Assembly (NCBI GenBank): GCA_002269645.1
Contig: NIVC01004004.1
Coordinates: 1,111 to 65,110, forward strand
Reading direction: 5' to 3'
Length of the DNA stretch: 64,000 nt
Origin: Macrostomum lignano
Lineage: Eukaryota
The notes below the pieces were generated by a model, which was not told the DNA's origin, did no database searches, and saw nothing but the letters and a program-made list of their open reading frames with translations. The position numbers and the translations under genes were made by a program. Positions 10,201-64,000 of the stretch are shown here, one piece after another. The stretch's first letter is position 1; each line of letters begins with the position of its first letter.

Positions 10201-12044
10201 CGCAGACACCAAGACAGACAATAAGAAACTAAGACAGACAAACAGACACTATGATACAGAACTCAAGTGTAGCACTGGTGTAGAGCAGTTGAGGTTGGAT
10301 TTGCTGTTCACTCAGCAGGGGGATATCCGCATCGCTAGGATAGCCTATTGTTCCTCAGTTCCCTGGTCAAAATATCAAAAGGATCTTGCATGGCTTGGTT
10401 CGTCATGCGTTGCTAAGGGTCTAATTTTTTTACAGTCAAATAAATGCTGTGACTTCCGGCGCTGTCAGCTACCGCTGCGCGCCCTCTCGAGTCTGAAGTG
10501 CCCCCCCCCCACCAAATGCTTTGGTGCAGGCCTGCCTGTTTTCGGCTCGACTTGCTGCATTGCTTGCTTCAAAAGATTTTCCCGAAACCTCTCCTCTGCT
10601 TATAGACTTGCTTGGACTCTCCGTATTCACACCTGAAGTGTCTGTAGCCAAGCCAGACACTTATGACTGACTGACTGACTGACTGACTGACTCGGGTCAT
10701 TTTTTCGCAGAAATTACGCAGCCAGCCTGCATGGTTGTCAAGCAAGCAAGCAAGCAAGCTTTTTTTGGTAGGCCAAAAATCAAACCACGTAGGAAAGTTA
10801 CGCGAAGACAGGCGGACAGAAGCTGCAGGCGTTAAAGCAGCAGAATTGCGCGTCTTTTAATTGGCCGCATAGTTGCTATAGTTGCTACCCCGAAACGATC
10901 AGGATGAAGCATCTTGACAGTGAGAAGAGGGAAGTGTTAATCTCAGACTCACTATTATGTTCTACACGCTTGACATGCTCTTGACACCTCTAGGGGAATT
11001 CTTGGGGGGTGTTGAGAAGAAGAGTGAAAGTTGAGTCTGCGGGGCTTCATAGATTGAGTTTGAGAAGTCTCTTTAACAGCCCACGCGACTTGGATACTGT
11101 CGGGGCATTGTTGACCTTCACTGTTTCTAGCATCCAGAGGGCGCATGGACTGCAGGGCTGGCCATCTGTCAGCTAAAAATAGTTTCCACTCCTATATAGC
11201 GGACTGAGAATTGCTTTTAGCTTCCACACAGATTCTGCAACACTGCAAAGTGCCGCTGGTGTTGTGCTATCCATGCGCTCAGTCTCCGCGTGTGCACAGC
11301 TGGTCTGTCGGTATATGTAGCTTAGCAACCGCTGTGTGAGTTGGGATTAAATAACGATTATGAGTAACTAGACTATAGCGAGCTGCTGTATCTTGCTAGC
11401 TTTATTGGGTCACACATTCTTCTATATTAGCTCTGACTTCGATTCCGTTTATTATTAAAATACGAGCGTGTATATCATTACTAATTATGCATTAATTAGA
11501 TGTTTTTGCTTTGCCGTGGACAATTTCATTAACTTAGCACTGCTAATGAGTCTCGCTGCACACTTCTCTCTCGAGGCCGTTCTCAAGCAGCGAGTTGAGC
11601 TCTTAGCCCGGAGGGTCTTTTAAAGCCGTTTGATCCTTCAGCACCCCCTCGGGGGTTCGAGACCAGCGGCTCATGTTAGCTCATTTTGCCCGTCTAATTT
11701 CCACCTTTTTGTGCTCTAAGACTTGAAAGTGTAGACTAAACTAACATGATTTTAGCTATGCAAAAGGTGTGTTAGAAGGCTCAGCTCAGTCATTAGCTGG
11801 ATTTGTTCTCAGACCTGTCAAATGAGCACCCAGACTGAACAAGCTCAGCGGGTGGCGGTGTTTTTGCTTCTCCCTCTGGCCTTTTGTGTGCTTTTTTGCT
11901 GCTCTCCTGAGCTGTTCTCTCAACTCTCAAGTCCGTCTCGGGTCACACAGTTCCCTAGCTTCAAATCCCCAAAACCTAACGTCTCCCAGTTTTTTATACA
12001 CTTTCATAATTACAAAAATATAGTAAATTAGGTAAATTAGTAGA

Positions 12045-13800
12045 ATATTGGGAATTGTGAAGCTTGGGGAATGTGAAGCTTAGGGATTGTGAAGCTTGGG
12101 GATTGTTCAGATTGGGGATTGTGAAGCTTGGGAATTTTTCAGATTGGGGATTGTGAAGCTTGGGAATTTTTCAGATTGGGGATTGTGAAGCTTGAGGATT
12201 TTTCAGATTGGGGATTGTGAAGCTTGGGGATTGTGAAGCTTGGGGATTGTGAAGCTTGGGGATTTTTCAGATTGGGGATTGTGAAGCTTGGGGATTTTTC
12301 AGATTGGGGATTGTGAAGCTTGGGGATTTTTCAGATTGGGGATTGTGAAGCTTGGGGATTGTGAAGCTTGGGGATTGTGAAGCTTGGGGATTTTTCAGAT
12401 TGGGGATTGTGAAGCTTGGGGATTTTTCAGATTGGGGATTGTGAAGCTTGGGGATTGTGAAGCTTGGGGATTGTGAAGCTTGGGGATTTTTCAGATTGGG
12501 GATTGTGAAGCTTGGGGATTTTTCAGATTGGGGATTGTGAAGCTTGGGGATTTTTCAGATTGGGGATTGTGAAGCTTGGGGATTTTTCAGATTGGGGATT
12601 GTGAAGCTTGGGAATTGTGAAGCTTGGGGATTGTGAAGCTTGGGGATTGCGAAGATGGGGGATTGTGAAGCTTTGGGATTGTGAAGATTCGGGATTGTGA
12701 AGCTTGGGGATTGTGAAGCTTTGGGATTGTGAAGATTCGGGATTGTGAAGCTTGGGGATTGTGAAGCTTGGGGATTGTGAAGCTTGGGGATTTTTCAGAT
12801 TGGGGATTGTGAAGCTTGGGGATTTTTCAGATTGGGGATTGTGAAGCTTGGGGATTGTGAAGCTTGGGGATTTTTCAGATTGGGGATTGTGAAGCTTGGG
12901 GATTTTTCAGATTGGGGATTGTGAAGCTTGGGGATTTTTCAGATTGGGGATTGTGAAGCTTGGGGATTTTTCAGATTGGGGATTGTGAAGCTTGGGAATT
13001 GTGAAGCTTGGGGATTGTGAAGCTTGGGGATTGCGAAGATGGGGGATTGTGAAGCTTTGGGATTGTGAAGATTCGGGATTGTGAAGCTTGGGGATTGTGA
13101 AGCTTTGGGATTGTGAAGATTCGGGATTGTGAAGCTTGGGGATTGTGAAGCTTGGGGATTGTGAAGCTTGGGGATTGTGAAGCTTGGGGATTTTTCAGAT
13201 TGGGGATTGTGAAGCTTGGGGATTTTTCAGATTGGGGATTGTGAAGCTTGGGGATTGTGAAGCTTGGGGATTTTTCAGATTGGGGATTGTGAAGCTTGGG
13301 GATTTTTCAGATTGGGGATTGTGAAGCTTGGGGATTTTTCAGATTGGGGATTGTGAAGCTTGGGGATTTTTCAGATTGGGGATTGTGAAGCTTGGGGATT
13401 TTTCAGATTGGGGATTGTGAAGCTTGGGAATTGTGAAGCTTGGGGATTGTGAAGCTTGGGGATTGCGAAGATGGGGGATTGTGAAGCTTTGGGATTGTGA
13501 AGATTCGGGATTGTGAAGCTTGGGGATTGTGAAGCTTTGGGATTGTGAAGATTCGGGATTGTGAAGCTTGGGGATTGTGAAGCTTGGGGATTGTGAAGAT
13601 TAGGAATTATGAAGCTTTGGGATTGTGAAGCTTGGGGATTGTGAAGATTGGGGATTGTGAAGCTTGGGAATTGTGAAGATTGGGAATTGTGAAGCTTGGG
13701 GATTTTTCAGATTGGGGATTGTGAAGATTGGGAATTGTGAAGCTTGGGGATTGTGAAGCTTTGGGGTTGTGAAGATTGAGGATTGTGAAGCTTGGGAGAT
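12045..13800. repeat. 16-bp minisatellite of two interleaved units (TTGGGGATTGTGAAGC and TTGGGGATTTTTCAGA) with higher-order structure
   Basis: Direct reading; the variant block TTGCGAAGATGGGG recurs near 12650, 13034 and 13466. Confidence 0.95.
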
Positions 13801-42847: not shown

Positions 42848-44700
42848 ATGGCCGACCAGTTGCACTCCGATTCCGATTCAACAGGTGAGCTAAGTAGGCA
42901 TTTAAAAATAGGATTCATTTCTCTATTTCTATAATTTAGGCAACCGTTTCCAGGAAAATGTTACCTTGGAAGAGTAAAATTATATCGGGGAAAGATGAGC
43001 TCGATAGAGGATGCACTCGAGGCAGATAAACGCATGCCCCTCGCGTTACATGCGTTCGATTAAGGTTGCCAGAGGACAGGTAGACAAGCAGGTAGGTCGG
43101 GGGAGGCACACAGGTAGGCAGGTGACTGTTAGCTACTATGCAGAAGTTAGTACACAGGGTGTGTTCCATTATCTCTATGCACATTGACTGCTCCGGTTTC
43201 TACCAAAAACCTGTTTTATTTTATTACTAATTTCCATTATTGCTCCACCAGCCCAGAACGGCAACGCCAAGAAGCAGCAGGACGCCACATCGATAGTGGA
43301 GAGGCGCCAACGAGATCATCTGCTCGGGGAGATGTCGAGTGCCTACAAGAGCGTCATCAGCATGGTTGGAGAGAACCCGGAGCGGCAGGGACTGAAGAAG
43401 ACTCCGGAGCGAGCGGCCAAGGCAATGCTGTTCTTCACTAAAGGTGAGAGGCTGCGATTCAAAATGCGCATATCTAGTTGGGACACGTAGAGGTCACAAT
43501 TGGACCACTAGAAGTTACCGTTGTACATGGTATTAGCCCGAAATCATATTTTTAACAGAATTGAAATATTCTGCTCTTCAGGCTACGACGAGACAATCGA
43601 CGACGTTCTTAACGAAGCTATCTTCGACGAGGACCACGACGAAATGGTAGTAGTGAAGGACATCGAGATGTTCTCAATCTGCGAGCACCACATGGTGCCG
43701 TTCATTGGCAAAGTCTCCATTGGCTACTTGCCGAATAAGCGGGTTCTGGGGATCAGCAAGCTCGCCAGGATTGTGGAGATCTACAGCCGGAGAATGCAGG
43801 TGCGCATCTGTGGACTTTTTGTAGGTGTGGTAGCTATAGGCACCGCTGGGATCGGGACTGATATGGGATCGGGACTGATATGTGATCGGGACTGATATGG
43901 GATCGGGACTGATATGGGATCGGGACTGATATGGGATCGGGACTGATATGGGATCGGGACTGATATGGGATCGGGACTGATATGGGATCGGGACTGATAT
44001 GGGATCGGGACTGATATGGGATCGGGACTGATATGGGATCGGGACTGATATGGGATCGGGACTGATATGGGATCGGGACTGATATGGGATCGGGACTGAT
44101 ATGGGATCGGGACTGATATGGGATCGGGACTGATATGGGATCGGGACTGATATGGGATCGGGACTGATATGGGATCGGGACTGATATGGGATCGGGACTG
44201 ATATGGGATCGGGACTGATATGGGATCGGGACTGATATGGGATCGGGACTGATATGGGATCGGGACTGATATGGGATCGGGACTGATATGGGATCGGGAC
44301 TGATATGGGATCGGGACTGATATGGGATCGGGACTGATATGGGATCGGGACTGATATGGGATCGGGACTGATATGGGATCGGGACTGATATGGGATCGGG
44401 ACTGATATGGGATCGGGACTGATGGCAGGGACTGATGGCATTGTGAAGCCAATCAAGCCGATCCCAAACTACAATGTAATGCAACAGGTCCAGGAGCGCC
44501 TGACAAAGCAAATAGCGATGGCCATCACGAAGGCTGTGCAGCCAAACGGGGTTGGAGTGGTGGTGGAGGCCACGCACATGTGCATGGTGATGCGAGGAGT
44601 GCAGAAGATCAACGCCGTCACCGTCACTTCCACCATGCTGGGCTGCCTTCGCGACGATCCAAAGAGTCGAGAAGAATTTCTCAGCCTGATTAAGAAATAA
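42848..44700 (+). CDS. GCH1: GTP cyclohydrolase I, exons 42848-42884, 43252-43443, 43582-43799, 44488-44700
   Basis: [57 protein letters not shown]|VQERLT and [11 protein letters not shown]. All introns are GT-AG with consistent phases; the short first exon is least certain. Confidence 0.96.
43846..44425. repeat. 17-bp minisatellite (GGGATCGGGACTGATAT) filling GCH1 intron 3
   Basis: Direct reading. Confidence 0.96.
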
Positions 44701-49943: not shown

Positions 49944-51080
49944 TCAGGCCAGCCGCAGCATCAACCGGATGCTCTTCAGCGCGTTCGCTCTGTCTGTCGT
50001 GGCACCCCACCAGATCATTGAGCTTGCATCCTTTATGGCAGAGAAACGGTAAATTCCGTTTGGATTCGTCTTTAAACAGTGTTTATACCACCAGCCGCCG
50101 TAGCCATAGACTGCGGAACAGTGACGCATGCTGTCAACGTCATTGTCCCTGTCGAAGGTGGAGAACTGCATTCCCCGGTGATAAGTGAGCGAGTCTTCGC
50201 TCATATTAGAATTGCCAACCAGGTACGAGTCTAAGGTCATCTTGTAGTTGGCGCTGGCATCGCCCACGGTGAAGCCGGAGTACTCGCAGACAAACAGGGC
50301 ATCCGACCACGCGACGGCCTCGATTCTCAGAAGCCGCGGATGATTTCCACTCAATTCGTGGATTTTTCTCAGACCTGAAAGGCAATAAATTTTAGAGAAA
50401 ACTGAACCTGTTACTGGGAGTTCGGACTCTCAGGAAGACTGAAAATCATGATTCACTCGCCAATCCAGAAGTCAGAGCTGTCTCCGAAGCCGTTCTCGTA
50501 CTCCGACCAGTTCCTGGCAAAGCTCACGCTGCCGTTGATTCGCTGCTGAATCAGGTAGAAATGTCTTCCCTCGACGATGTCTGGAATTGGAAGGTTGGTA
50601 AAACTTCATAGGTGTGAATTCTGATTCGTTTAAACGAGGTAATATTAGTTTTTAATAGCTCAGTAAATCGTCAATTTTGTGCCACTTACAAGGCTCAAAG
50701 GCTGACTCGTCAGCTGGTCGGCGGAACACCTGGCCGCTGCCACCAGCAGCCCCGAAGTCGGCATTCCACAGGGCAGACAGCAGGCAGAGACCCGATTCCG
50801 GTACGAATGTCACAGCCGAGCAGACAAGGCTGCCCAGCCACTCGCATTTCATCGCGCAGTCTCGCTCGTTCCGACCCGACAGAGCTCTATAGATTGAGCT
50901 GACTGTCGAGTTCAGAGGCTGACTGGAGAACTCTGCAAGAAGCGAGAGCATTTTCGCAAATAATCAGGGTTGCAGATTGCCAGAGTCAATTACTGAGCAA
51001 TTATTCATCTTACCGGCGGCAGTACAAACGGAGACTAGCAGAGCCAGATTCACAGTTGCCAACAAGCAGCAGCTCCACAT
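49944..51080 (-). CDS. PAN/apple plus fibrinogen C-terminal domain protein (paralog 1), exons 51080-51014, 50932-50690, 50580-50461, 50374-49944
   Basis: Signal-peptide exon; DCAMKC..C...C PAN pattern; FReD motifs QQRINGSVSFARNWSEYENGFG, DFWIG|LRKIH, FSTFDRDND and GGWWYKHC. Intron 3 needs a GC donor. Confidence 0.88.
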
Positions 51081-52766: not shown

Positions 52767-53712
52767 ATGGACAGCAGGCTGTTGACGGTGGTAGCTGCGC
52801 TATCGCTGCTTGTCACCGCCTCTGCTGCAGCTGGTATGTCATTAAAATTGACTGAGTATCGCCCAATCACGAGCCAAATTCTTAAGAATTACCCTCGTAC
52901 ATGTACACGGTAGTACACCTAAACTTAATTCCAGAATTCTCGATTCAGCCAGTGCAACCAGTAGCAATCTCAGGGCACAGGACTTTTCCCGGTCTAAACG
53001 AGAGAGACTGCGCGATGAGGTGCGAATCGCTCGGCCTGCTCTGCTCGGTTGTTGCATTCGTGCGGGAATCCGGTCTCTGCCTGCTGTCTGCCATCCGGAA
53101 TGCCAGCTTCGGAGCTGCTGCTGGCAGCGGCCAGGTGTTTCGCCGATCCGGCAGCGGGCTGAGTTTTGAGCCGTGTGAGTCGGAATTCGGTTGATAGGGT
53201 TTTATGGTAATGCCGCCCGGCCCTAGGCAATGATAAACATTTTACCTGTAGCTGGTAAACATCTTTTTTTGAGATGAAAAGTCATAACTGGAAGGACGCT
53301 ACCTCGAACATCAGAAAATTTAATTGGGAGGTCTACGCTGCGACATGCATTAGCAATATAAGCTTTTGCAGCGTTTTATCAGCACTAAATTTGCAGTAAC
53401 TCACTTTCTGAACTTTCCCTGCAGTCCTGCAGTAACAGAGGAACCTGTCATGTATTTTGTCCTCCGACGCTGATTCAAACATTTAATCGAAGATTGACAA
53501 AAGACAAAATAAAAAACACCAATAGTTATTAATTTTTAGTGCATTATGTACGATTCTTAATTTCAGAATAAATCTGTACCAAACTTAATCAGATATTGTG
53601 GACGGCAGGACGTTCTGGGTGTTCTTGAAACGCGTTCTGGGCAATTTGAGCTTTGCTAAGACCTGGTCTGAATACGAAAATGGATTTAGTGATGGAATCG
53701 ACTTCTGGATTG
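52767..53712 (+). CDS. PAN/apple plus fibrinogen-domain protein (paralog 2), exons 52767-52833, 52935-53174, 53593-53712; the last exon is displaced beyond the window by the Polinton
   Basis: Same exon phases and near-identical exon sizes (67/240/120) as paralog 1; SFAKTWSEYENGFSDGIDFWIG followed by GTAAG. Confidence 0.85.
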
Positions 53713-53715
53713 GTA

Positions 53716-53973
53716 AGTAGTATAGAAAAAGACGCTTCTAGACCCAGAGCACTTTTTTAATGCCCGTTTTAAGGGTCTAGAGGGGGGACACGGGGGGTAA
53801 ATAAAAAAACACATCTAAACACCATTAATACATCTAATCACCCATAATCACCCCTAACAATAAAAATCACTTCCAAACACTCCCCAACACCCCCCTCGCG
53901 TCCCCCCTCTTAAGACCTTACAAACGGCCATTAAAATAAGGTCTGATCTAGAAGCGTCTTTTTCTATACTACT
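53716..53973. repeat. Terminal imperfect palindrome (fold-back) at the Polinton left end
   Basis: 53716-53742 is the exact reverse complement of 53947-53973; imperfect pairing continues ~55 bp inwards. Confidence 0.92.
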
Positions 53974-54030
53974 ACTCTATAACCCCTTGCCCGCGCCGCA
54001 GGCGCGAAGGGTCTTTTTCTGTTACTAAAA

Positions 54031-54345
54031 ATGACCCGAGTTTACACCTTTTCTGTTAGTGATACTTTTGAGACTGTTGCTAAAAATGCAGAGATAATAA
54101 AACAACATATTTTGAATGGAATAATTGATGAAGTTTATTTAAAATATGACGACAAGCATGACCTAAAACTTTATCCATTAGAGCTAGATGAGATGTATGA
54201 TTTAGAACAAGAGGGTGAGTTAATATTTCAACTTGGAGATTATTTAAATTCGGATGATTGGGAGGTTAGATCAACAGATTCCGAATCAACAAATAGTTCA
54301 TATGAAACCAGCGATTCAGAGAATGAAAGTGAAATTTTTATGTGA
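54031..54345 (+). CDS. Polinton hypothetical acidic protein, 104 aa
   Basis: Intact ORF with TAAAAATG start; no recognisable motif. Confidence 0.6.
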   Translation: MTRVYTFSVSDTFETVAKNAEIIKQHILNGIIDEVYLKYDDKHDLKLYPLELDEMYDLEQEGELIFQLGDYLNSDDWEVRSTDSESTNSSYETSDSENESEIFM

Positions 54346-54361
54346 AAAAAATATTTAAAAA

Positions 54362-54586
54362 ATGAATTATTATTCTATAACAGAAACGACTTTTATTATG
54401 AAAAATATATATAAAAAAATGAAGGTAAACTATTCCTATATCGGAAATGTTCCAATTAATGAACTTAATGAAAATTTAAGTCTAATCACTGTTGAACAAA
54501 TGTCAATAATAATATTAGTAACAATTATTGTAATAATATTGTTTTTGTTTGTAATAAAAAATTTACTACCATGTTGTCTTAAGTAA
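54362..54586 (+). CDS. Polinton small membrane protein, 74 aa
   Basis: Intact ORF with A-rich start and C-terminal hydrophobic segment IIILVTIIVIILFLFVI. Confidence 0.55.
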   Translation: MNYYSITETTFIMKNIYKKMKVNYSYIGNVPINELNENLSLITVEQMSIIILVTIIVIILFLFVIKNLLPCCLK

Positions 54587-54596
54587 CTGTTTGAAC

Positions 54597-55574
54597 TTAG
54601 TTCGCAGACATTATCTGGTTCTCATAAAAAGAACCCAATATTTCTTCACCGTCCTTATCAGCAATTATATAGGTTGTAGGATTGGTATTTAAAACTTTAC
54701 TGATAGTAAATTTCTCACTTATCTTCCAATATCCTTTTCTTCCTTTTTCAAACTTATCTTTCCATTTATAGATATAAACAGAATCACCAACCTTAAAACC
54801 TTTAGTTTTCTTTTTTTCAAAATCTCCAAAAGTAACCTTAACATTTTCAGGTTTGTTATAAGCTTGTTGAGGAGCCATCTTTATGGCCGAATGATATGAA
54901 TTGTTATAATCTTTTACAACGTCTGGTAATATTTTTACCCATTTTTGGTTTCCATTAAGACTAAACTGAAACCACAATTTCTTACCTAAAGTTCGATTAA
55001 ATCTTTCTATTAATGCGTTTTTACTCTCTCCATAAATAGAATAAATTTTATTAATATACTCCCCATTCGCGTCCTTTTTCCTTTCTTGTCCTTTTTCAAA
55101 ATGATACAATTTATACATATGAGGATTGTAAAATTCTTTTCCTTCATCAACACACAACCGGTTGCTTTTTTCATCAAGGCTTCTAAAAGCAGCAGCAACC
55201 TCCTCTCCTTTTTTGGATTTTAAAGGAATTGCCCACGCGTATCGAGTAAAACCATCTAATATGGTTAAAATATATTTATATCCTTTATCGATCGGCATAG
55301 ACATTAAATCAGCATACCAAATTTCGTTCTTTTTGAAGTTCATGATTTTTCTATAAAATTTAGGTTTTCGATATTCTTTATGAAGAATCTTTGCCTCATC
55401 AGAACTTAACCCACCGCCACTTAACAACAAACACTCAACACAATTATTTCCATGTTGATTATAATTAATTCCCAAACCAAATTTAACTTTAGATTGTAGA
55501 ATCTTTTTAACCATCCACCTAGTTAATTTTTGACCTACCGATAATCCCTGCAAGTTATCTAATCCTTGAATCAT
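54597..55574 (-). CDS. Retroviral-type (rve) DDE integrase of Polinton type, probably the 3' part of a PLA2-integrase fusion gene
   Basis: WYADL (D), CVDEGKEF (D), LIERFNRTL (E), LTILDGFTRYAWAIPLKSK, and C-terminal FKVGDSV..FEKG..W..F.I.KVLNTNPTTY..EEI.G.FYE. Confidence 0.95.
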   Translation of the reverse strand: MIQGLDNLQGLSVGQKLTRWMVKKILQSKVKFGLGINYNQHGNNCVECLLLSGGGLSSDEAKILHKEYRKPKFYRKIMNFKKNEIWYADLMSMPIDKGYKYILTILDGFTRYAWAIPLKSKKGEEVAAAFRSLDEKSNRLCVDEGKEFYNPHMYKLYHFEKGQERKKDANGEYINKIYSIYGESKNALIERFNRTLGKKLWFQFSLNGNQKWVKILPDVVKDYNNSYHSAIKMAPQQAYNKPENVKVTFGDFEKKKTKGFKVGDSVYIYKWKDKFEKGRKGYWKISEKFTISKVLNTNPTTYIIADKDGEEILGSFYENQIMSAN

Positions 55575-55600
55575 TTTTTGATCGGCTTCATGTTTTAATC

Positions 55601-56206
55601 TTAATGCTTCCTCGGCGGGTTCTTGTCAGCATCTCTATATGCTAAGTCGTGATAGTATGCTAACCAATCAATCCCATTTATTGGAATTGAATCAGATTTT
55701 GGAGTATTGTCAGGATTTAATCTCAAATCTAAGCGAGTGCCGGGTAGTTTACCCTCAATCTTTCGAAAGAGGCTGGAGCACACCTTAAGCGGCGATAATT
55801 ACCGCCCATCTCCGTCTGCTCTCTGAACCTTCTCCTTATATTTAAAATACTTAGGAGCTTGGCTGCGCATTGCCACCGTGTCTTCAAGCTTTTTACCTTT
55901 GGGAAGAGGAGTTACCTCTGTTCCTTCAAAAGATTTCTCAATTGAAGTGGTACTTGAAGCTGTATGACGGGTTTCACGCAATTTGGAGATGTCGCCACAA
56001 ATAGTGACTAGCAAGGACATTGCCTTCCTCACTCAGGCCACGGGTTAACCTGTGAAGTTCATTGATGGTAGGTGTAGCTCACCCGTATACCTCCCAGTAG
56101 TAAATATTGGTGGTAAGCTTGTTAATCCTTTTTGAACATCTAAAAATCCTCCTTCAAATACTAATTGATCGAACCTACGGTTCGCGAACTTCGTTCGGTT
56201 GCTCAT
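55601..56206 (-). CDS. Parvovirus-type phospholipase A2-like domain gene, exons 56206-56048 and 55744-55601, split by a group I intron
   Basis: Joining the exons gives GELHLPSMNFTG|PGTRLDLRL..PINGIDWLAYYHDLAY (Ca-loop GPG and catalytic HDxxY). Confidence 0.88.
55745..56047 (-). ncRNA. Group I self-splicing intron (IC1-like, 303 nt, no internal endonuclease ORF)
   Basis: P1 CAGGU/GCCUG with U.G at the splice site; P3 CAUCUCC/GGAGAUG; P element AAAUUGCGUGAAA and Q element AAUGCGCAGCC forming P4; P5abc with A-rich bulge and GAAA loop; P6 CUCCU/AGGAG; P7 GAGAGCA/UGCUCC; P8 GGCGG/UCGCC; P9 CCUC/GAGG; P9.0 AG/CU. Removal restores the frame. Confidence 0.92.
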
Positions 56207-56756
56207 TTTTAATAGCCATAAAAATACATGATAGCACCAATTGTTTTGCAAACTCTTCGATAGTTGGTTGTTTAACTTTTTTATAGCGATTATCTACGCT
56301 AGTTAAGTATCTTTTATTTCTCCAATTTTCAGACTTTTTAATCTGATCATCGTCTTTGTAACTAAATGAAGAAGCGGGGATGAAATGATCAATATCTAAC
56401 TTTCCAGTATAATCTTTTGATACATAATAATTTCTTGTGAAATTTAACCAATCAAAAAAGAATTCTTTTGTGCAACCAAGATATGAGATATAGTCCTTGT
56501 CATTAAAATTTTTCAACGCCCAATTTATTCTATTTCTAATTAAAACAATATGTTTGTAATTATCATCAGTGTGATACTTATTTTTTCTATATTCATTCCA
56601 TTTATCTTTATTGTTTTTTATCCAAATAGCAGATGAGGTATTATGACAAGATCGACAATCATTTCTAAATTTTTTTGAATCATTTCTCCAAAAATAAAAT
56701 TCTTTTGTCATCGGTTTTTCTTGTTTACACTTAGTACAAATCTTATTAGTTTCCAT
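56175..56756 (-). CDS. Free-standing HNH-type endonuclease with N-terminal Zn ribbon, 193 aa
   Basis: CTKC..CRSC; YLGCTKEFFFDWL; LDIDHFIPASSF..NWRNKRYL..DNRYK, the HNH/HNN pattern of viral homing-like nucleases. Confidence 0.8.
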   Translation of the reverse strand: METNKICTKCKQEKPMTKEFYFWRNDSKKFRNDCRSCHNTSSAIWIKNNKDKWNEYRKNKYHTDDNYKHIVLIRNRINWALKNFNDKDYISYLGCTKEFFFDWLNFTRNYYVSKDYTGKLDIDHFIPASSFSYKDDDQIKKSENWRNKRYLTSVDNRYKKVKQPTIEEFAKQLVLSCIFMAIKNEQPNEVREP

Positions 56757-56783
56757 TTTATAAAAAATAAATTTACCAATTAA

Positions 56784-57449
56784 TTAAACACCAGTATGTC
56801 CAGCAGCTTTCGCAGCAGCTAAAACAAGTTTTCGTGGTGTTTTAAATCCATCACCAACAGCTGGTTTGTTATTTATAGAATTAACAATCCTTTTATACAA
56901 GCTGGTATTTTTAACAGCTCCTCCTAACTCATCATAAAAAATTCTAGCACTTATTAATTCATCCCTAGTATATAAATCAGGGTTAAACTTTACCCTAGGG
57001 TTCATAACAATATTATATGCTCCACCCAATTCTCTATATAGTTCATTTCGATTTTTATCAACTCCACCAATTCGATAATTATTATTACCTAAATCTGTCG
57101 CAGCAATACTAGCTGGTACTCTTGGATATTGTTCCCGATCGCCCCGCTCTGCACGTCTAATCTCTGCAATTCTCAATTGTGCTTGATCAACATCATAAGC
57201 AGGCGGCTCATCTAAAATTTCATCCTCTTTTGGCTCCGTATTTTTAGCAATTTTTTCCAGAAGATCTTTATCTGTTTTTTCTAGTTCACTAATTTTCCCA
57301 GTAATAGGATTAACAAAAGGAGCAGCAAATCTTTCGCCAGCTAATTGTATTCCTAACTTTCTTTTTTGTAAATTTCTAACAAAATCAGAATATCTTTGCT
57401 TCTCTTTATAAATCGCTAACTCTCCATCAACGTCCATAAATTGACTCAT
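56784..57449 (-). CDS. Polinton hypothetical protein, 221 aa
   Basis: Intact ORF with TAAAAAATG start, divergent from the capsid gene. Confidence 0.7.
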   Translation of the reverse strand: MSQFMDVDGELAIYKEKQRYSDFVRNLQKRKLGIQLAGERFAAPFVNPITGKISELEKTDKDLLEKIAKNTEPKEDEILDEPPAYDVDQAQLRIAEIRRAERGDREQYPRVPASIAATDLGNNNYRIGGVDKNRNELYRELGGAYNIVMNPRVKFNPDLYTRDELISARIFYDELGGAVKNTSLYKRIVNSINNKPAVGDGFKTPRKLVLAAAKAAGHTGV

Positions 57450-57483
57450 TTTTTAACATAAAAAACTTTTTTAACTTAAAAAA

Positions 57484-58956
57484 ATGGCTGAAACAAAAAC
57501 TATGTGGAGTGATGAATTTCATTTCAAAAAGCACCGACAGTATATTAATGAGGTCAGAGCAAGAGATTTAAATTATACCCTACCAACAAGTGATAATTCA
57601 AATAACTTTACTACTGGAACGGTAACTTTTGACATCGGCGCAACCAACACTATATTGGATATGAAAAATGCGTTTTTCCGCGTTAGATGGTTGTATACTA
57701 GAAATGATGGAACTGCTCTTGCAGCCGGAGATATCGCAGATCGATCCGGAATAATAATAGAAAATGATTGGTTTTATAAATGTTTTTCCCAAGCTCAACT
57801 AACTGTTAATGGTGCTGAGGTTGAGACATCATCAAACCCCGCAGAGATTAATGGAGTTTTGAAACATTTAAATTATACTTATTTATCAAAACAAGTTGGT
57901 GATAATGTTGGGTGGATGCCGGATAAAGGTAACGGGCAAGCATTAGTTTTCCCTAATGTACAAAACGCAGCCGGTGCAGATACTGCAGCGCTAATTGTTT
58001 ACCTTAATACAAACATAGTTCCAGTTGTAACCACTATGACTAATACAAAAGATATTAATACTGGTTTTATAGATCGTCAGAATAAATTCCCAGTCGCGGT
58101 TTTAACCACAGCAACAGCATATGAGCAGGACTTTTCAATCTTTCCACTATTTGGGTTTTTCTCACCAAATCGGGTATGGAAAGGATTAAAATTTGGGATA
58201 CAGTTGCAAATATCTGGTGGATATCAGCCTAGGATACTTTATGGAACCTCAATTTCAACCGATATAGCAGTTCGTATAGATTCAATTCAATTAGTCGTAC
58301 CAACTATTGAGGTAACAGCCCCACTTTTAAAACACATCGATAATCAGTTAACGCATGATCAGGAAATATTTTATTTGAATCGTCGACATTTTATGCGAAC
58401 CATTAATAATAACCAGGATTCATTCCAGTGGCAAATACTGACATCAAAACGTCGGGTGAGATATATTTTTGTTTGGTTTAAGATAACAAATAGAAGGAGT
58501 AAAAGAGCAAATGGGGATTTATATTGGCTTCAATCCGGTGCCATAGCAGAACAAGCAGCCACCGCAACAGACAATGCGGCTGCAGCTATTAACGAGTTTA
58601 ATGTTCAGAATATCCGCCTGCAGGTTGATGATCAATATTATCCGGTTAAAGACCCCCTAAATTTAAATACAGCAAATAATAATGTTAATGATTTTATAAA
58701 ATATTATCAAGATTATGCCAAAAATGAAGCGTATGCCGTCCCTCAGTACACACCCACAGAGTTTCTAAACATTCATCCAGTGGTTGTTTATGATCTAACG
58801 GCACAGAAAGAAAACGTAGCCAATATTGGACTTAATTATATGTTAGAGATTAATAAAACCGGTAATCAGGCACTTGACGCCCACGTATTGTTTCTAGAGG
58901 AATATATGTCAATTGCTAAAGCTGATGGCACGATTGTTCGGGACGCGCCACTTTAG
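57484..58956 (+). CDS. Double jelly-roll major capsid protein, 490 aa
   Basis: Size, position and Polinton MCP-like motifs FSQAQLTVNGAEVE..NPAEI, VRYIFVWFK, NIRLQVDDQYYP and PVVVYDLTAQ. Confidence 0.88.
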   Translation: MAETKTMWSDEFHFKKHRQYINEVRARDLNYTLPTSDNSNNFTTGTVTFDIGATNTILDMKNAFFRVRWLYTRNDGTALAAGDIADRSGIIIENDWFYKCFSQAQLTVNGAEVETSSNPAEINGVLKHLNYTYLSKQVGDNVGWMPDKGNGQALVFPNVQNAAGADTAALIVYLNTNIVPVVTTMTNTKDINTGFIDRQNKFPVAVLTTATAYEQDFSIFPLFGFFSPNRVWKGLKFGIQLQISGGYQPRILYGTSISTDIAVRIDSIQLVVPTIEVTAPLLKHIDNQLTHDQEIFYLNRRHFMRTINNNQDSFQWQILTSKRRVRYIFVWFKITNRRSKRANGDLYWLQSGAIAEQAATATDNAAAAINEFNVQNIRLQVDDQYYPVKDPLNLNTANNNVNDFIKYYQDYAKNEAYAVPQYTPTEFLNIHPVVVYDLTAQKENVANIGLNYMLEINKTGNQALDAHVLFLEEYMSIAKADGTIVRDAPL

Positions 58957-59040
58957 TGTCGCAGTGCAAAGCACGTCGCACCATTGTAAAATGAGTGCAG
59001 GTCTCCGACCGTCGCGCCTATTTAAATTATTTCTTTAAAA

Positions 59041-59835
59041 ATGGTAAAGGCAAAACACAATAAAATATTTCCAAATGATCCTTTTCTTTGTTTAGTAATC
59101 GGAGGATCAGGTAAAGGAAAAACACACTTTGTTTACGATTTATTAACAACAGATGGAATGTTAGACTATAATAATTTAATAATTTATACTAATAAACCTA
59201 GAATAAAATATTATGAATTTCTTAAACATGGATTAAAAAACAAATTAAAAAAAGATGTCTTGTTTAGAATGTTAAGAGCATATGAGCAATATGAGGATGA
59301 TGACGAACCGCGATTTAATCTAGCAGACATTGAGGATTTATGTAAAACAATGGCACAACAGCCAGAAAACATCACCGATCGCCCCGAAGGGTCGCGGACT
59401 TCGTCCGATCGCGCCCCAACTGTTAGAGTATCAACCCGATTAGCCTATGATCAAATTCCAAAACATGATAAAACACTAATTATTTTTGATGATTGTATTA
59501 ATGACGGTGATCAAGAATTGCAAAAGGAAATTTTTGTTAGTGGTAGAGGAGATGGAATTGGAGCTTTTTATCTTACTCAATCCTTTAGAGAATTAGAATC
59601 GATTATAAAAAAGAATGCTAGCTGTTGTGTAATGTTTGATTTAGATAACTATGATCTACAAAATATTCACGCTAGATTTAATCCCGGATTGGATGCAAAA
59701 CCATTTAAAAGTATGTGTAAAAAAATTTGGGATGATAGCCAATACAAACATATTTATATCAATCCGAGGTTAGAAAGGAAACATAGAATTTTAACAAATT
59801 TGATAAAAGAAGATAATGAGGAAGAAGAGACATAG
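59041..59835 (+). CDS. A32-like genome packaging ATPase, 264 aa
   Basis: Walker A GGSGKGKT, Walker B LIIFDD, and GR..GIGAFYLTQS. Confidence 0.93.
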   Translation: MVKAKHNKIFPNDPFLCLVIGGSGKGKTHFVYDLLTTDGMLDYNNLIIYTNKPRIKYYEFLKHGLKNKLKKDVLFRMLRAYEQYEDDDEPRFNLADIEDLCKTMAQQPENITDRPEGSRTSSDRAPTVRVSTRLAYDQIPKHDKTLIIFDDCINDGDQELQKEIFVSGRGDGIGAFYLTQSFRELESIIKKNASCCVMFDLDNYDLQNIHARFNPGLDAKPFKSMCKKIWDDSQYKHIYINPRLERKHRILTNLIKEDNEEEET

Positions 59836-59855
59836 CACAATTTCCCACTATAAAA

Positions 59856-60670
59856 ATGACTACAAATTTAAATACTATAAAACAATTGGTAGATCGAACT
59901 AATTCAAAATTTAGTACAACATTACAGTTTATAATGACAACCAGCGAGCAACGGATTCAATTGCGCGATCCATTACAACTTGATCAAAGCCTAAGTTATC
60001 AAATAGGTTTAATTCTATTTTCGGTTTTCAACATGCCTCAATTAATTAATGCAACAAATAATCAATTTAGATATTCTAAAGATTCCGGAGCCAATTGGAC
60101 AACATTTAGCGTTAACCCAGGAGCGTATAGCTATACTGATTTGAATGCTTATATAGAAGGAAATTAACAACTAATGGTGATTGGGTAGCAGGAGCAATTG
60201 TTATAGGTGTTGATTTACCGTCTGGCAGATTCACACTATCACTAGGATCCGGATATCAGGTTGATTTCACAATTGCAAATTCACTCAGAACCATACTTGG
60301 ATTTAATTCCCGAATAGTTACCACATCAAGCACCGGTGATACAGTTGGAAATATTGAGGGTGGAGTAATACAATTAATATAACAACCGACATATCAAACG
60401 GTGGTTATATAACAGATAATAACGGAGTTTTGGTTCAACGTGGAATTATTTATTCAATCCCATTTCTTGCTGTTCCAATTGGAGAGAAAATGATTGTTGC
60501 ACCCAAACCCCAATATATTACCTTAAATCAATATAGTTCAATCAATTTATATTAGGATTGTAGATGAAAGCGATAGATTAATAAGTTTTGGTGGGCAATC
60601 AATAACAATAATTTTACGTATAAAACAGGTTTACGAACCTTTGGTTCAGGACTTTGTCCGTTTCCTATAG
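59856..60670 (+). pseudogene. Minor capsid (penton) protein, frameshifted as assembled
   Basis: PLQLD..Y.IGL..FSVFN..I...NN.FRY..PGAYSYTDLN at the start. The end IYIRIVDESDRLISFGGQSITIILRI is reached only through several 1-bp shifts. Confidence 0.75.
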
Positions 60671-60882
60671 TAAAAATGGGTAATCGAACAACATGTTCGC
60701 GTGCAAAGCACGATAATAATAATTTAATAAAAAAAAATCAGAAAAAGTTAAAAAAGCTGAAGATAATTACGAACTAGAACTAGCAAAATTAAGGCAGTTA
60801 CAAGCTGATAAAATAAGAAAGGAATTGTTAAAACCCACACCTACGAAACTAACTAAAACCAAGAGTTTTTCAGGAACATAAA

Positions 60883-61320
60883 ATGACCATGACGTGGGAT
60901 GATTTTAAACAAAGATATGGAACGGACACAACAAGCAATATCGAATTAACAAATTGGGCGAGGCAGTTAAAAATAAAACCATTCAGATGTGTTATGCGGA
61001 TGAGATAAAAGACTTACCACAATATGGATGTTTCATTGTTAATATTGAAACAACAAAAGAAAATGGTGTTCATTGGTCAGCAGTTTATTCAAACCTAAAC
61101 TTGTTTATTTTTTTGATTCATACGCGCTTCCTCCGTTACAGGAAATAAAAGACAATTTAATCATACTAAAAATCGTTTATGTGGAGATCATCACGAACAA
61201 TTTCAAACCTTTGATAAAAGTTATTGCGGGCAAGCAGCGTTGTATTTTTTATATCGACTTTCGAATGAAGCTCGTGTAAACCCCGAAGTATTTAAGACTA
61301 TTTTAGACTCTATAAAATAG
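60883..61320 (+). pseudogene. Adenain-type cysteine protease, frameshifted as assembled
   Basis: IVNIETTKENGVHW (His), YFFDSY (Asp) and QTFDKSYCG (Gln/Cys) spread over shifting frames. Confidence 0.85.
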
Positions 61321-61330
61321 ACAGTAAAAA

Positions 61331-63360
61331 ATGTTATTTTCTGGAACACCCTCATGGAACGGAACATCAAGTACTGGTGGTGGTACTTCTGGTGGAATAA
61401 GTGTTACATTCGGAGATAACCGATATATTAATGAAGATGAAGGTTATAAAAAAAGTGAAGTTGATACTAAACTAAATTTAAAAAGAAATGTTGCAGATTC
61501 CTATACCAAAACTCAAATAGATAATTCCCTAAATTTAAAACGGAACGTAGCCGATTCATATACAAAAACAGAGGTTGACAATGGGTTAAATTTAAAAAGA
61601 GATATAACTGATTCTTATTCTCGAACTCAAATAGATGATTCATTAAATTTAAAACGCAATACGGCCGATTCTTATACCAAAACCGAAGTTGATAATTCCC
61701 TAAATTTAAAACGGAATGTTGCTGATTCCTATACCAAAACTGAAGTTGATAATTCCCTAAATTTAAAAAGAGATATAACTGATTCCTATACCAAAACCGA
61801 AGTTGATAATTCCCTAAATTTAAAAAGAGATATAACTGATTCTTATAGCAAAACTGAAGTTGATAATTCCTTAAATTTAAAAAGAGATATAACTGATTCC
61901 TATACCAAAACGGAGGTTGATAATTTAGTTGGGGTGGAGCCCCAAACAGATCGATTCCAAACGGTTGAAACTGGTCACATACCTACCATGGCAGATTGGA
62001 GTGGAAATGGTTTTGCAATAACCGCAAGCACTGCATTTAATACAACTGATTTTGCAAGTTGGAAAGCGTTTGATGGAAATGATTCAACAGATTGGGCAAC
62101 AAATAATACTCAAACCGATTATTGGATTCAAGTCCAATGCCCTTCCGCAATAATGTGTTATAAAATTGATTTACGTGGTAGGCCATCACCTTCAACCGAG
62201 CACCCAGCATCATGGCGATTTGAGGGAAGTAATGACAATACAAGTTGGGACGTATTAATACCTGCGGATAGTTCTGTAGAATAAATAACTCAACTCAAAC
62301 AATTAATGTCACACAAAATTTTGATAAAACATATTCATATTTCAGATTGTTCTGTCTTACATCAACTCGGGTTCACAACCCGGCTGTCAACCTTCAGATT
62401 TATAGACAGACTTTTACAATTCTTGATTTAAATTGGGAGTAGTTAATCAATCAATTGATATGGGTAATACAATTACTAATATCTCTAATATAAACGATAA
62501 CAGTTCTGTTGTTACTAAAGGTTATGTTGACACGCGAGTAACACAAACGGCGGATGGCCGAATGTCTTTTAATGATAAAATAAAATTGGATGGAATACCT
62601 GCAATCGATGCCGCTTTGTACGAGCCCGTAATTTGCAATTGGACTGGATATCAAAACCCAACCACAGCCGGTGATATTTTTCCAACTGGAAGTTTTGTTG
62701 GTAGCGCTACTTATATTGATTATCAAAATGGAGCTAGAATTACTGATGAAGCAAGTGGTCAGTCTGGAGCGTTGCAATTTAATTTCACCCATTTTCGTAA
62801 TATCTCCGCCTCCTTCTATTTCCGAGTTGCTAATGCTACAGGAATGGTGCTGATGCGGTTTGGTTTTATGCATATTGTCACGAACGTCCAACAAGTGAAT
62901 TTGGATCCGGGTTAACAACCCGCGCCGGCTTGATTGTGTTTGCGAGTGAATGGCATGATAGAGTTGGGGTTGTTTGGAGCAATATAAAATCAGACGGTGC
63001 AACAGCTCGTAATGATGTTCTTAATGACGCAGATCAAACTATAACCTATGCTAATATTGATAACGGCGATTGGCATCTTTTTGAAATTAATATTTTAAAT
63101 CAAAGAGTTTGGTATCAAATAAGCACATACAATGTATCAGCTAATACATATACGCTAATTGGGCAAAACTTTTTTACATATGATAGTGGAACTTGGGAGA
63201 TTTAGATAAAACGGGAACTCTTATGGGTTTTGGTGCTCGAACTGGAGGAGCAGATGCCGCACATTTTATTCGTGGTGCAGCCGTTTGTGGTAGCACATCA
63301 GCAGGATATGATTTTGCTGCGACCGCATATTTGGAACGGCCACAAACCGAAATACCTTAA
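61331..63360 (+). pseudogene. Fibre/receptor-binding-like protein: 17-aa repeats, F5/8C-like domain, L-type-lectin-like domain; frameshifted after 62284
   Basis: Repeats YTKTEVDNSLNLKRDITDS; WKAFDG..W..WIQV..WRFEGSNDNTSW; downstream frames give GADAVWFY and GFGARTGG..H.I. Confidence 0.65.
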
Positions 63361-63374
63361 ATATTTCTATATAA

Positions 63375-63602
63375 ATGGCTTTTAGTAGAACTCCATCGAT
63401 GCGGCAAAATAATGTTATTATTCCTATTCCTAAACAAGAATCAAATATAAAAACATTCAAATCTCATACCAAATTTTTATTTAGTACTGTAAATGTTCAG
63501 GATAATAAGAAGCTTCAAGAATTAATTAAGTTATTAAAAAATCATATTATACTTCAAGAGTTTTGGAAAATAGGATTTAAATGGAGAAAAAAGAAAGAAT
63601 AA
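63375..63602 (+). CDS. Polinton hypothetical protein (may continue by frameshift)
   Basis: ORF with TAAATG start directly after the fibre gene. Confidence 0.4.
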   Translation: MAFSRTPSMRQNNVIIPIPKQESNIKTFKSHTKFLFSTVNVQDNKKLQELIKLLKNHIILQEFWKIGFKWRKKKE

Positions 63603-64000
63603 CTCCAATACAATACCTATTAAGCTCGGGACAAATCCCCAAAGAGCGTGGGGAATTCATTTTGGTGCTATTAAAAATAGACGAGAATGTCGGTATCTGA
63701 AGCAGATAAATGGGAACGCGACCGGTTCAACCAACGTAAAGGTCAGATGTTGAGTAATGTTGATCGATAAATTATGATTATGATTTATATGCTAAAAAAG
63801 TAAGAAGAGTTTCAAACCATATAAGAAATATGGATTTTTCAATATTGGATTTGGAAGCTTATCAATGTTATGTGTAATCGTTTTAGGTATTTTAACAATC
63901 TATTCCAACTCTTAATTTATCTCAATTATTTTTAGGTATTTCAATTGGCTCAATATCAGGTTTTGAATTGATCAGGAACTTATCAATACTTTTAGCAATT

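Follow-up and report, generated by a model that had tools for sequence, protein, structure and literature searches.

In a family of Polinton-like elements of Macrostomum lignano, two unrelated nucleases alternately fill a slot beside a group I intron, and relatives of both nucleases occur inside the same loop of a homologous intron. The copy described here lies in a window of 64,000 nucleotides (the whole stretch of DNA analyzed, from contig NIVC01004004.1), where the slot is held by a free-standing HNH gene. It is about an even call that the HNH protein is a nuclease of homing type, interchangeable and directed at the site of intron insertion in rival copies or close to it, with cleavage and homing predicted; a strict form, in which the enzyme cuts only intronless alleles, takes up about half of that weight.

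The element and its split gene

The host genome searched comprises 764 Mb in 5,269 contigs. Within the window, the DNA is AT-rich and gene-dense from ~53,716 onward, up to the point where both window and contig end; a left-end motif, AGTAGT, is at 53716. The relevant features are:

53716..64000, no strand assigned: Polinton/adintovirus-like element with rve integrase, A32 ATPase and probable capsid gene; runs off the window
54597..55744, minus strand: exon 2, completing the PLA2-like domain and containing the rve integrase; a frameshift in the window copy separates the two parts
55745..56047, minus strand: ORF-less group I intron, 303 nt (RF00028, 62.2 bits against a cut-off of 50, E 1.8e-15)
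56048..56206, minus strand: exon 1 of the gene in which PLA2 and integrase are fused; its last codon is the Gly of the PLA2 Gly-Pro-Gly motif
56170..56198 (approximate limits), minus strand: small palindromic insertion in the HNH/exon-1 overlap, missing from many copies
56175..56756, minus strand: free-standing HNH (His-Me) nuclease ORF, 193 aa, assigned by motif, conservation and predicted fold
56757..56788, minus strand: AT-rich motif ahead of the HNH ATG, common to intact HNH copies
56784..57449, minus strand: 221-aa ORF, function unassigned, the upstream border of the nuclease slot
57484-58956: probable capsid gene, 490-aa ORF
59041-59835: A32 ATPase gene

The rve integrase, A32-type ATPase and PLA2-like gene are among the genes expected of a Polinton/adintovirus. 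The rve match falls just below the Pfam cut-off in the window copy (E 3.4e-7) and above it in a copy of a second family (L133); Pox_A32 is above its cut-off, and PF08398 (PLA2-like) is above its own in intronless copies. The 490-aa ORF has no capsid profile match in Pfam. In sister copies, polymerase-like ORFs of 830-875 aa have Endonuclease_7 as their only Pfam match, and this Endonuclease VII (His-Me) domain (L238:31-2529, L239:7213-9840) recalls the HNH insertion described for pPolB2 Polintons (10.1101/2023.08.22.554363). The ORF at 61331-62284 of the window is fibre-like, containing repeats of 19 residues as well as an F5/8 type C domain. The host flank contains a long tandem array with a 16-bp unit (11900-13600), as well as what we take to be a GTP cyclohydrolase I-like exon and a fibrinogen-like exon (44407-44700 and 49944-50240).

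Both Polinton families have the integrase fused to a PLA2-like domain (window 54597-56206; L133:2369-3727). The domain is of the parvovirus type, and the intron splits its Gly and Pro codons; in intronless copies, the PLA2-integrase gene is one continuous ORF. Because of this fusion, expression of the full-length integrase would depend on splicing or on an internal start. No spliced joint is listed in eight contig runs, none of which is on record as RNA, and the joint seen in sequence runs carries the letters of the genomic intronless allele.

The intron match, which was missed in a wider 11-kb RF00028 scan, has a P1 helix with a U-G pair at the 5' splice site, and the G-binding pair of P7 is kept. 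The last base of the window intron is A, not the terminal G expected of such an intron. Among type-A introns, the last base is A in 77/105, G in 24 and T in 4 (junction offset by indels); many near-identical A-ending copies share the terminal A and keep the P7 G-binding pair. No paper on group I introns with a terminal A came up in a literature search. The introns of family 2 and of a metagenomic locus discussed below end in G, and their RF00028 scores are 85.2 and 101.4 bits, respectively, as against only 30.7 bits for type B. The type B intron (L102:2170-2500 and 17 other places) has the same 5' splice site as type A and a different core, with a compensated P1 and shared peripheral domains, and its 3' junction seems to add a codon.

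The local anatomy given in a preliminary description of this DNA is borne out by the ORF coordinates. The HNH gene ends at 56175 and overlaps the next gene, which has its ATG at 56206, by 32 bp (56175-56206), and the distance from the HNH stop to the 5' splice site (56048|56047), put there at ~130 bp, measures 127 bp. The same description held the intron to encode no nuclease, and this also stands, since its sole ORF of at least 60 aa is a 73-aa frame that runs through the ribozyme core. In intronless copies, the HNH stop lies 106 bp from the junction, and the longer overlap in the window is due to the small palindromic insertion. Short GC-rich palindromic insertions recur in the overlap region, in the P5 extension of the intron (a 333-nt variant) and in several ORFs.

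The HNH gene and the occupants of its slot

The window protein consists of an N-terminal four-Cys zinc finger, a helical linker and a C-terminal beta-beta-alpha core (D123, H124, N147 and N156). It has no Pfam match, and PF01844 is matched by only 4/91 of its relatives at E <=0.01. A full HMMER search identified 2,256 relatives at E <=0.001, unlike a word-indexed protein search, which found nothing; a sequence search of the PDB gave no clear relative. The four core residues and K159 are invariant in 16 close rows of the alignment and at least 90% conserved in 91 rows, and the zinc residues are likewise invariant, as are the four core residues in 48 distinct HNH alleles. In the structural model (pLDDT 92.6), two strands (120-124 and 148-152) and a helix (153-159) hold the conserved residues. 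Fold searches with this model return many HNH nucleases, all weakly (best Foldseek E 0.047, with none <0.001; Z 4-6, with 4.2-5.2 for the core), and atlas neighbours of the protein are annotated as HNH with scores of 0.87-0.89. On motif, conservation and predicted fold, the 193-aa protein is accepted here as an HNH/His-Me finger nuclease with predicted activity, and the label given to it in the preliminary description therefore holds despite the missing Pfam match. The AT-rich motif before its ATG is a possible promoter. The family is widespread, and its members need not share a target.

The HNH gene is under purifying selection. Across the 48 distinct alleles, dN/dS is 0.47 overall and 0.34 in the nuclease domain, from pairwise counts on related, recombining copies with three damaged ORFs left out. 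The Eco47II-like nuclease described below has a value of 0.30. The available HNH tree is a quick one with many open forks.

Searches with the intron, the HNH gene and exon 2 located 126 family-1 places that were fetched and classified; in the exon-2 search, which reached into a more distant family, 150 of 450 candidates were scored. The slot is occupied by HNH in 84 places, by the Eco47II-like gene in 37 and by a third ORF with an HNH tail in two, and it is truncated in three. The third ORF is acidic and belongs to no known family (L153:1471-1938, L165:1459-1920); a segment similar to it is present in the upstream-gene region of two divergent intronless copies (L103, L104). In one truncated copy, the Eco47II-like gene runs into host-like repeated RING-like ORFs (L213:2201-2758).

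An intron is present in 123/126 places. Among the 84 HNH copies, 71 have type A, 10 have type B and three have none; among the 37 Eco47II-like copies, the corresponding numbers are 30, 7 and 0, and the zero is not significant with so few cases. A further 14 HNH places, which were not fetched, have spacings of 411-463 bp between HNH and exon 2, indicating an intron. The preliminary description had proposed a two-part system of HNH gene and intron, to be checked by their co-occurrence across copies. Of the 84 HNH copies, 81 also have an intron. The three exceptions, from two lineages, have HNH without it, which agrees with one half of the refuting outcome named in that description, an HNH gene present regardless of the intron. 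Two of these retain an intact HNH gene with the usual upstream motif, and their junction sequences and HNH alleles differ from those of the window.

Allele linkage shows no excess either. Among 63 distinct copies, the distance correlation of HNH with intron alleles is 0.32, and with a distant integrase segment it is 0.30, so that no co-conversion signal is apparent. The missing excess carries little weight, because such a signal would be lost if intron-bearing copies recombined freely. Nuclease and intron are thus not inherited as a pair across copies in the manner of collaborative homing, and an exclusive HNH-intron pair is ruled out by the 126-copy table. What survives of the two-part proposal is its anatomy, an intact HNH gene under purifying selection, and a family member found inside a homologous intron at the same codon position.

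The Eco47II-like nuclease, GGNCC and intron-encoded relatives

The alternative slot gene encodes 168 aa, is unrelated to HNH and matches RE_Eco47II (PF09553), a family of restriction endonucleases (PMC3424549, PMC10305163). The intronic form scores 26.2 bits against a cut-off of 25.9, and the free-standing form 23.8 bits (E 3.9e-5), below that cut-off. Eco47II homologues are predicted to cut unmethylated GGNCC (PMC10305163). Gly-Pro codons necessarily spell GGNCC, and the intron splits that word.

The word is otherwise nearly missing from these elements. In the ORFs of seven elements (five of family 1 and two of family 2, 10-17 kb each and non-independent), GGNCC occurs 0, 1, 2, 0, 0, 1 and 0 times, against 3.2-8.9 expected from synonymous shuffles, for a total of four seen and ~38 expected; three of the four are the junction itself in intronless copies. 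Among 7,640 words, only GGNCC is at or below a third of expectation in all seven elements. Five other words pass the depletion test, but in family 1 only, and either their expected counts are low or their loss is incomplete; no short recognition word for HNH stands out. In the window, there are 0 sites in 53700-64000 and 182 in the 53.7-kb host flank. That GGNCC is forced at the Gly|Pro junction and depleted elsewhere marks the Eco47II-like gene as probably the tighter partner of the intron, with GGNCC cleavage as its predicted activity. In contrast to Eco47II restriction systems, no methyltransferase was noticed on inspection of the listed ORFs, and the element itself appears to avoid GGNCC.

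In family 2, a second Polinton family of the same genome whose integrase is ~57% identical, an Eco47II-like ORF sits inside the same intron loop in 17/18 of the intron-bearing places fetched, and 24 intronless places have neither nuclease within 1.5 kb. Five of nine database homologues of the Eco47II-like nuclease also read into the intron core. Some family-2 loci (L141:1625-2000, L206 and L212) have a second partial exon 1, with or without an intron head, upstream of the gene.

The HNH family has intron-encoded members of its own. A motif scan of metagenome contigs gave three loci, and in one of them (L226, Ga0307474_10150753) PLA2 exon 1 ends in the same Gly and exon 2 starts with PGT. Its intron has an RF00028 core (101 bits), a P1 guide like that of the window and a terminal G, and it contains an ORF of the HNH family. 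A perfect 21-bp stem encloses this ORF, which occupies the loop where family 2 has its Eco47II-like ORF. The relationship is distant: 29% identity, E 3e-9 at library scale, another subclade and one internal stop. A closer HNH relative, P0006 (E 1.3e-20), whose intron belongs to an unassigned host gene, extends into this intron core, as do 4/6 of its cluster mates (E <=3.6e-14). Among the 150 HNH matches listed, none outside its cluster runs into the core. No related loci came from viral contigs scanned with P0006, with the PLA2 region or with alignments of Eco47II-like and PLA2 sequences, a P1-motif scan gave 120 loci of which none is related, and a scan of prokaryote genomes gave 0 loci. The same intron lineage is found in giant-virus-like capsid and RNA polymerase genes (L221-L225). 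In three of these loci (L221-L223), the 5' part before the capsid ORF has no RF00028 score, and a second intron 3 kb away does score.

Homing and the competing explanations

In the favoured reading, two element genomes would share a cell, and the HNH enzyme would nick or cut a long site near the Gly|Pro junction of the rival genome. Repair from the donor would then transfer the HNH gene together with exon 1, and also the intron in donors that have one. Such a process would work like collaborative homing, but with no exclusive pair, and the HNH enzyme may not strictly spare or require the intron-containing allele. The homing enzyme I-HmuI reportedly nicks intron-bearing and intronless targets alike. 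Family-1 diversity peaks around the junction, which would be expected close to the target of a homing enzyme: variation in the gene is highest over the last 45 nt of exon 1 (pS 0.43, pN 0.128, compared with 0.05-0.36 and 0.002-0.057 in 13 integrase windows). Relaxed constraint could also yield this peak. Against the favoured reading, all three intronless family-1 copies carry HNH, two of them intact, a pattern that could be due to chance as only two lineages are involved.

Those same intact genes would fit a selfish gene that is blind to the intron, spreading by intronless homing, competing with the Eco47II-like gene for the slot and cutting a polymorphic neighbouring gene, with the intron as linked cargo. 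We consider this unlikely, though it is the strongest of the alternatives. It would account for the poor linkage of the slot to its neighbours, for HNH alleles whose amino-acid identity runs from 100% to as low as ~51%, against ~95% for the integrase, for the putative DNA-binding N-terminal half being the most variable (dN/dS 0.49-0.63), and for the tendency of the exon-1 haplotype to lean with slot type (24/34 versus 5/13, Fisher P 0.054). However, immunity by polymorphism predicts tight linkage between HNH and its target, and the slot correlations (0.30-0.34 for exon 1, 0.42 for the upstream gene) are no higher than background. It also leaves the intron-encoded relatives at the Gly|Pro site unexplained. 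Less likely again is that the slot nucleases have no homing role and act on co-infecting viruses, on host DNA or in genome processing. The alternative occupant does resemble a short-site restriction enzyme, its word is lost throughout the element and occurs 182 times in the host flank, the N-terminal zinc finger of the HNH protein matches Hpy99I, a restriction enzyme (Z 5.9, rmsd 1.8 over 42 residues), and intron endonucleases can serve viral interference (PMC11620839). Yet no second word is lost as cleanly as GGNCC, and HNH is dispensable, being missing from 37 copies of family 1 as well as from those flanks of family 2 that were fetched. The least probable of the three is an idle relic, a former homing gene carried along after the intron became nearly fixed and its targets disappeared. 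The prevalence of the intron is consistent with this, as are an HNH dN/dS well above the 0.09 of the integrase and the 23/84 HNH copies that fail an intact-ORF filter. Against it, 61/84 HNH ORFs pass that filter and only 35 of the 84 pass the one for integrase, the catalytic and zinc residues are invariant, and dN/dS remains <0.5.

Parts of this arrangement are already known. Protist Polinton-like viruses have group I introns and HNH genes (PMC12220804), and phages have collaborative homing, in which free-standing nucleases can cut where an adjacent ORF-less intron inserts and spread together with that intron (PMC3984707, PMC2988022). The present candidate shares the anatomy of the collaborative homing described for cyanophage psbA and for T3/T7-like phages (PMC3984707, PMC2988022, PMC11296320, PMC10448857). 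It differs in its setting, a Polinton-like element within the nuclear genome of a eukaryote, and in the alternation of two unrelated nucleases; the cut site is putative, and free-standing and intron-encoded states occur in one genome. Phage homing slots also turn over, with a PD-(D/E)XK gene taking the place of an HNH gene, and such turnover in islands of homing endonuclease genes has been proposed as an origin of collaborative-homing layouts; the available portion of that report describes no short restriction-type site hidden by an intron (PMC10448857). HNH enzymes often nick their targets (PMC3984707, PMC2988022, PMC10448857). Action of HNH nickases at a distance from their gene, with co-conversion of flanking markers, is familiar from T4 seg and mob genes, with intronless and trans homing, and from nicking by I-HmuI and I-HmuII (PMC2988022, PMC2790892). 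Unlike I-HmuI, the window protein has its zinc finger first and its nuclease last, and the two have no significant sequence or fold match (Foldseek E 2.1). The protist viruses have RF00028 introns measuring 309-376 bp, as well as HNH genes that are either free-standing or fused, but their introns lie in a short unannotated host gene, and the accessible text links no nuclease to the intron (PMC12220804). The adintovirus paper, in the sections available, mentions PLA2 genes and neither HNH nor a viral group I intron (PMC8502044). A literature search of incomplete coverage found no report of group I introns or homing pairs in animal Polintons.

It may be, as a tentative extension, that this animal Polinton population holds in one genome every stage of a proposed route, from an empty site, through an ORF-less intron beside a free-standing nuclease, to a nuclease inside the intron. 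A long-site HNH enzyme and a GGNCC restriction enzyme would then have converged on the Gly|Pro junction, competing for one slot and driving homing between virus genomes in animal cells. Collaborative homing is known from phages and is a proposed step in the emergence of mobile group I introns. Many natural copies of the empty, adjacent and internal states coexist in this genome, which makes the sequence of events and the target sites directly testable, and for a compact HNH family, with >2,000 relatives still uncharacterised, a target would be defined.
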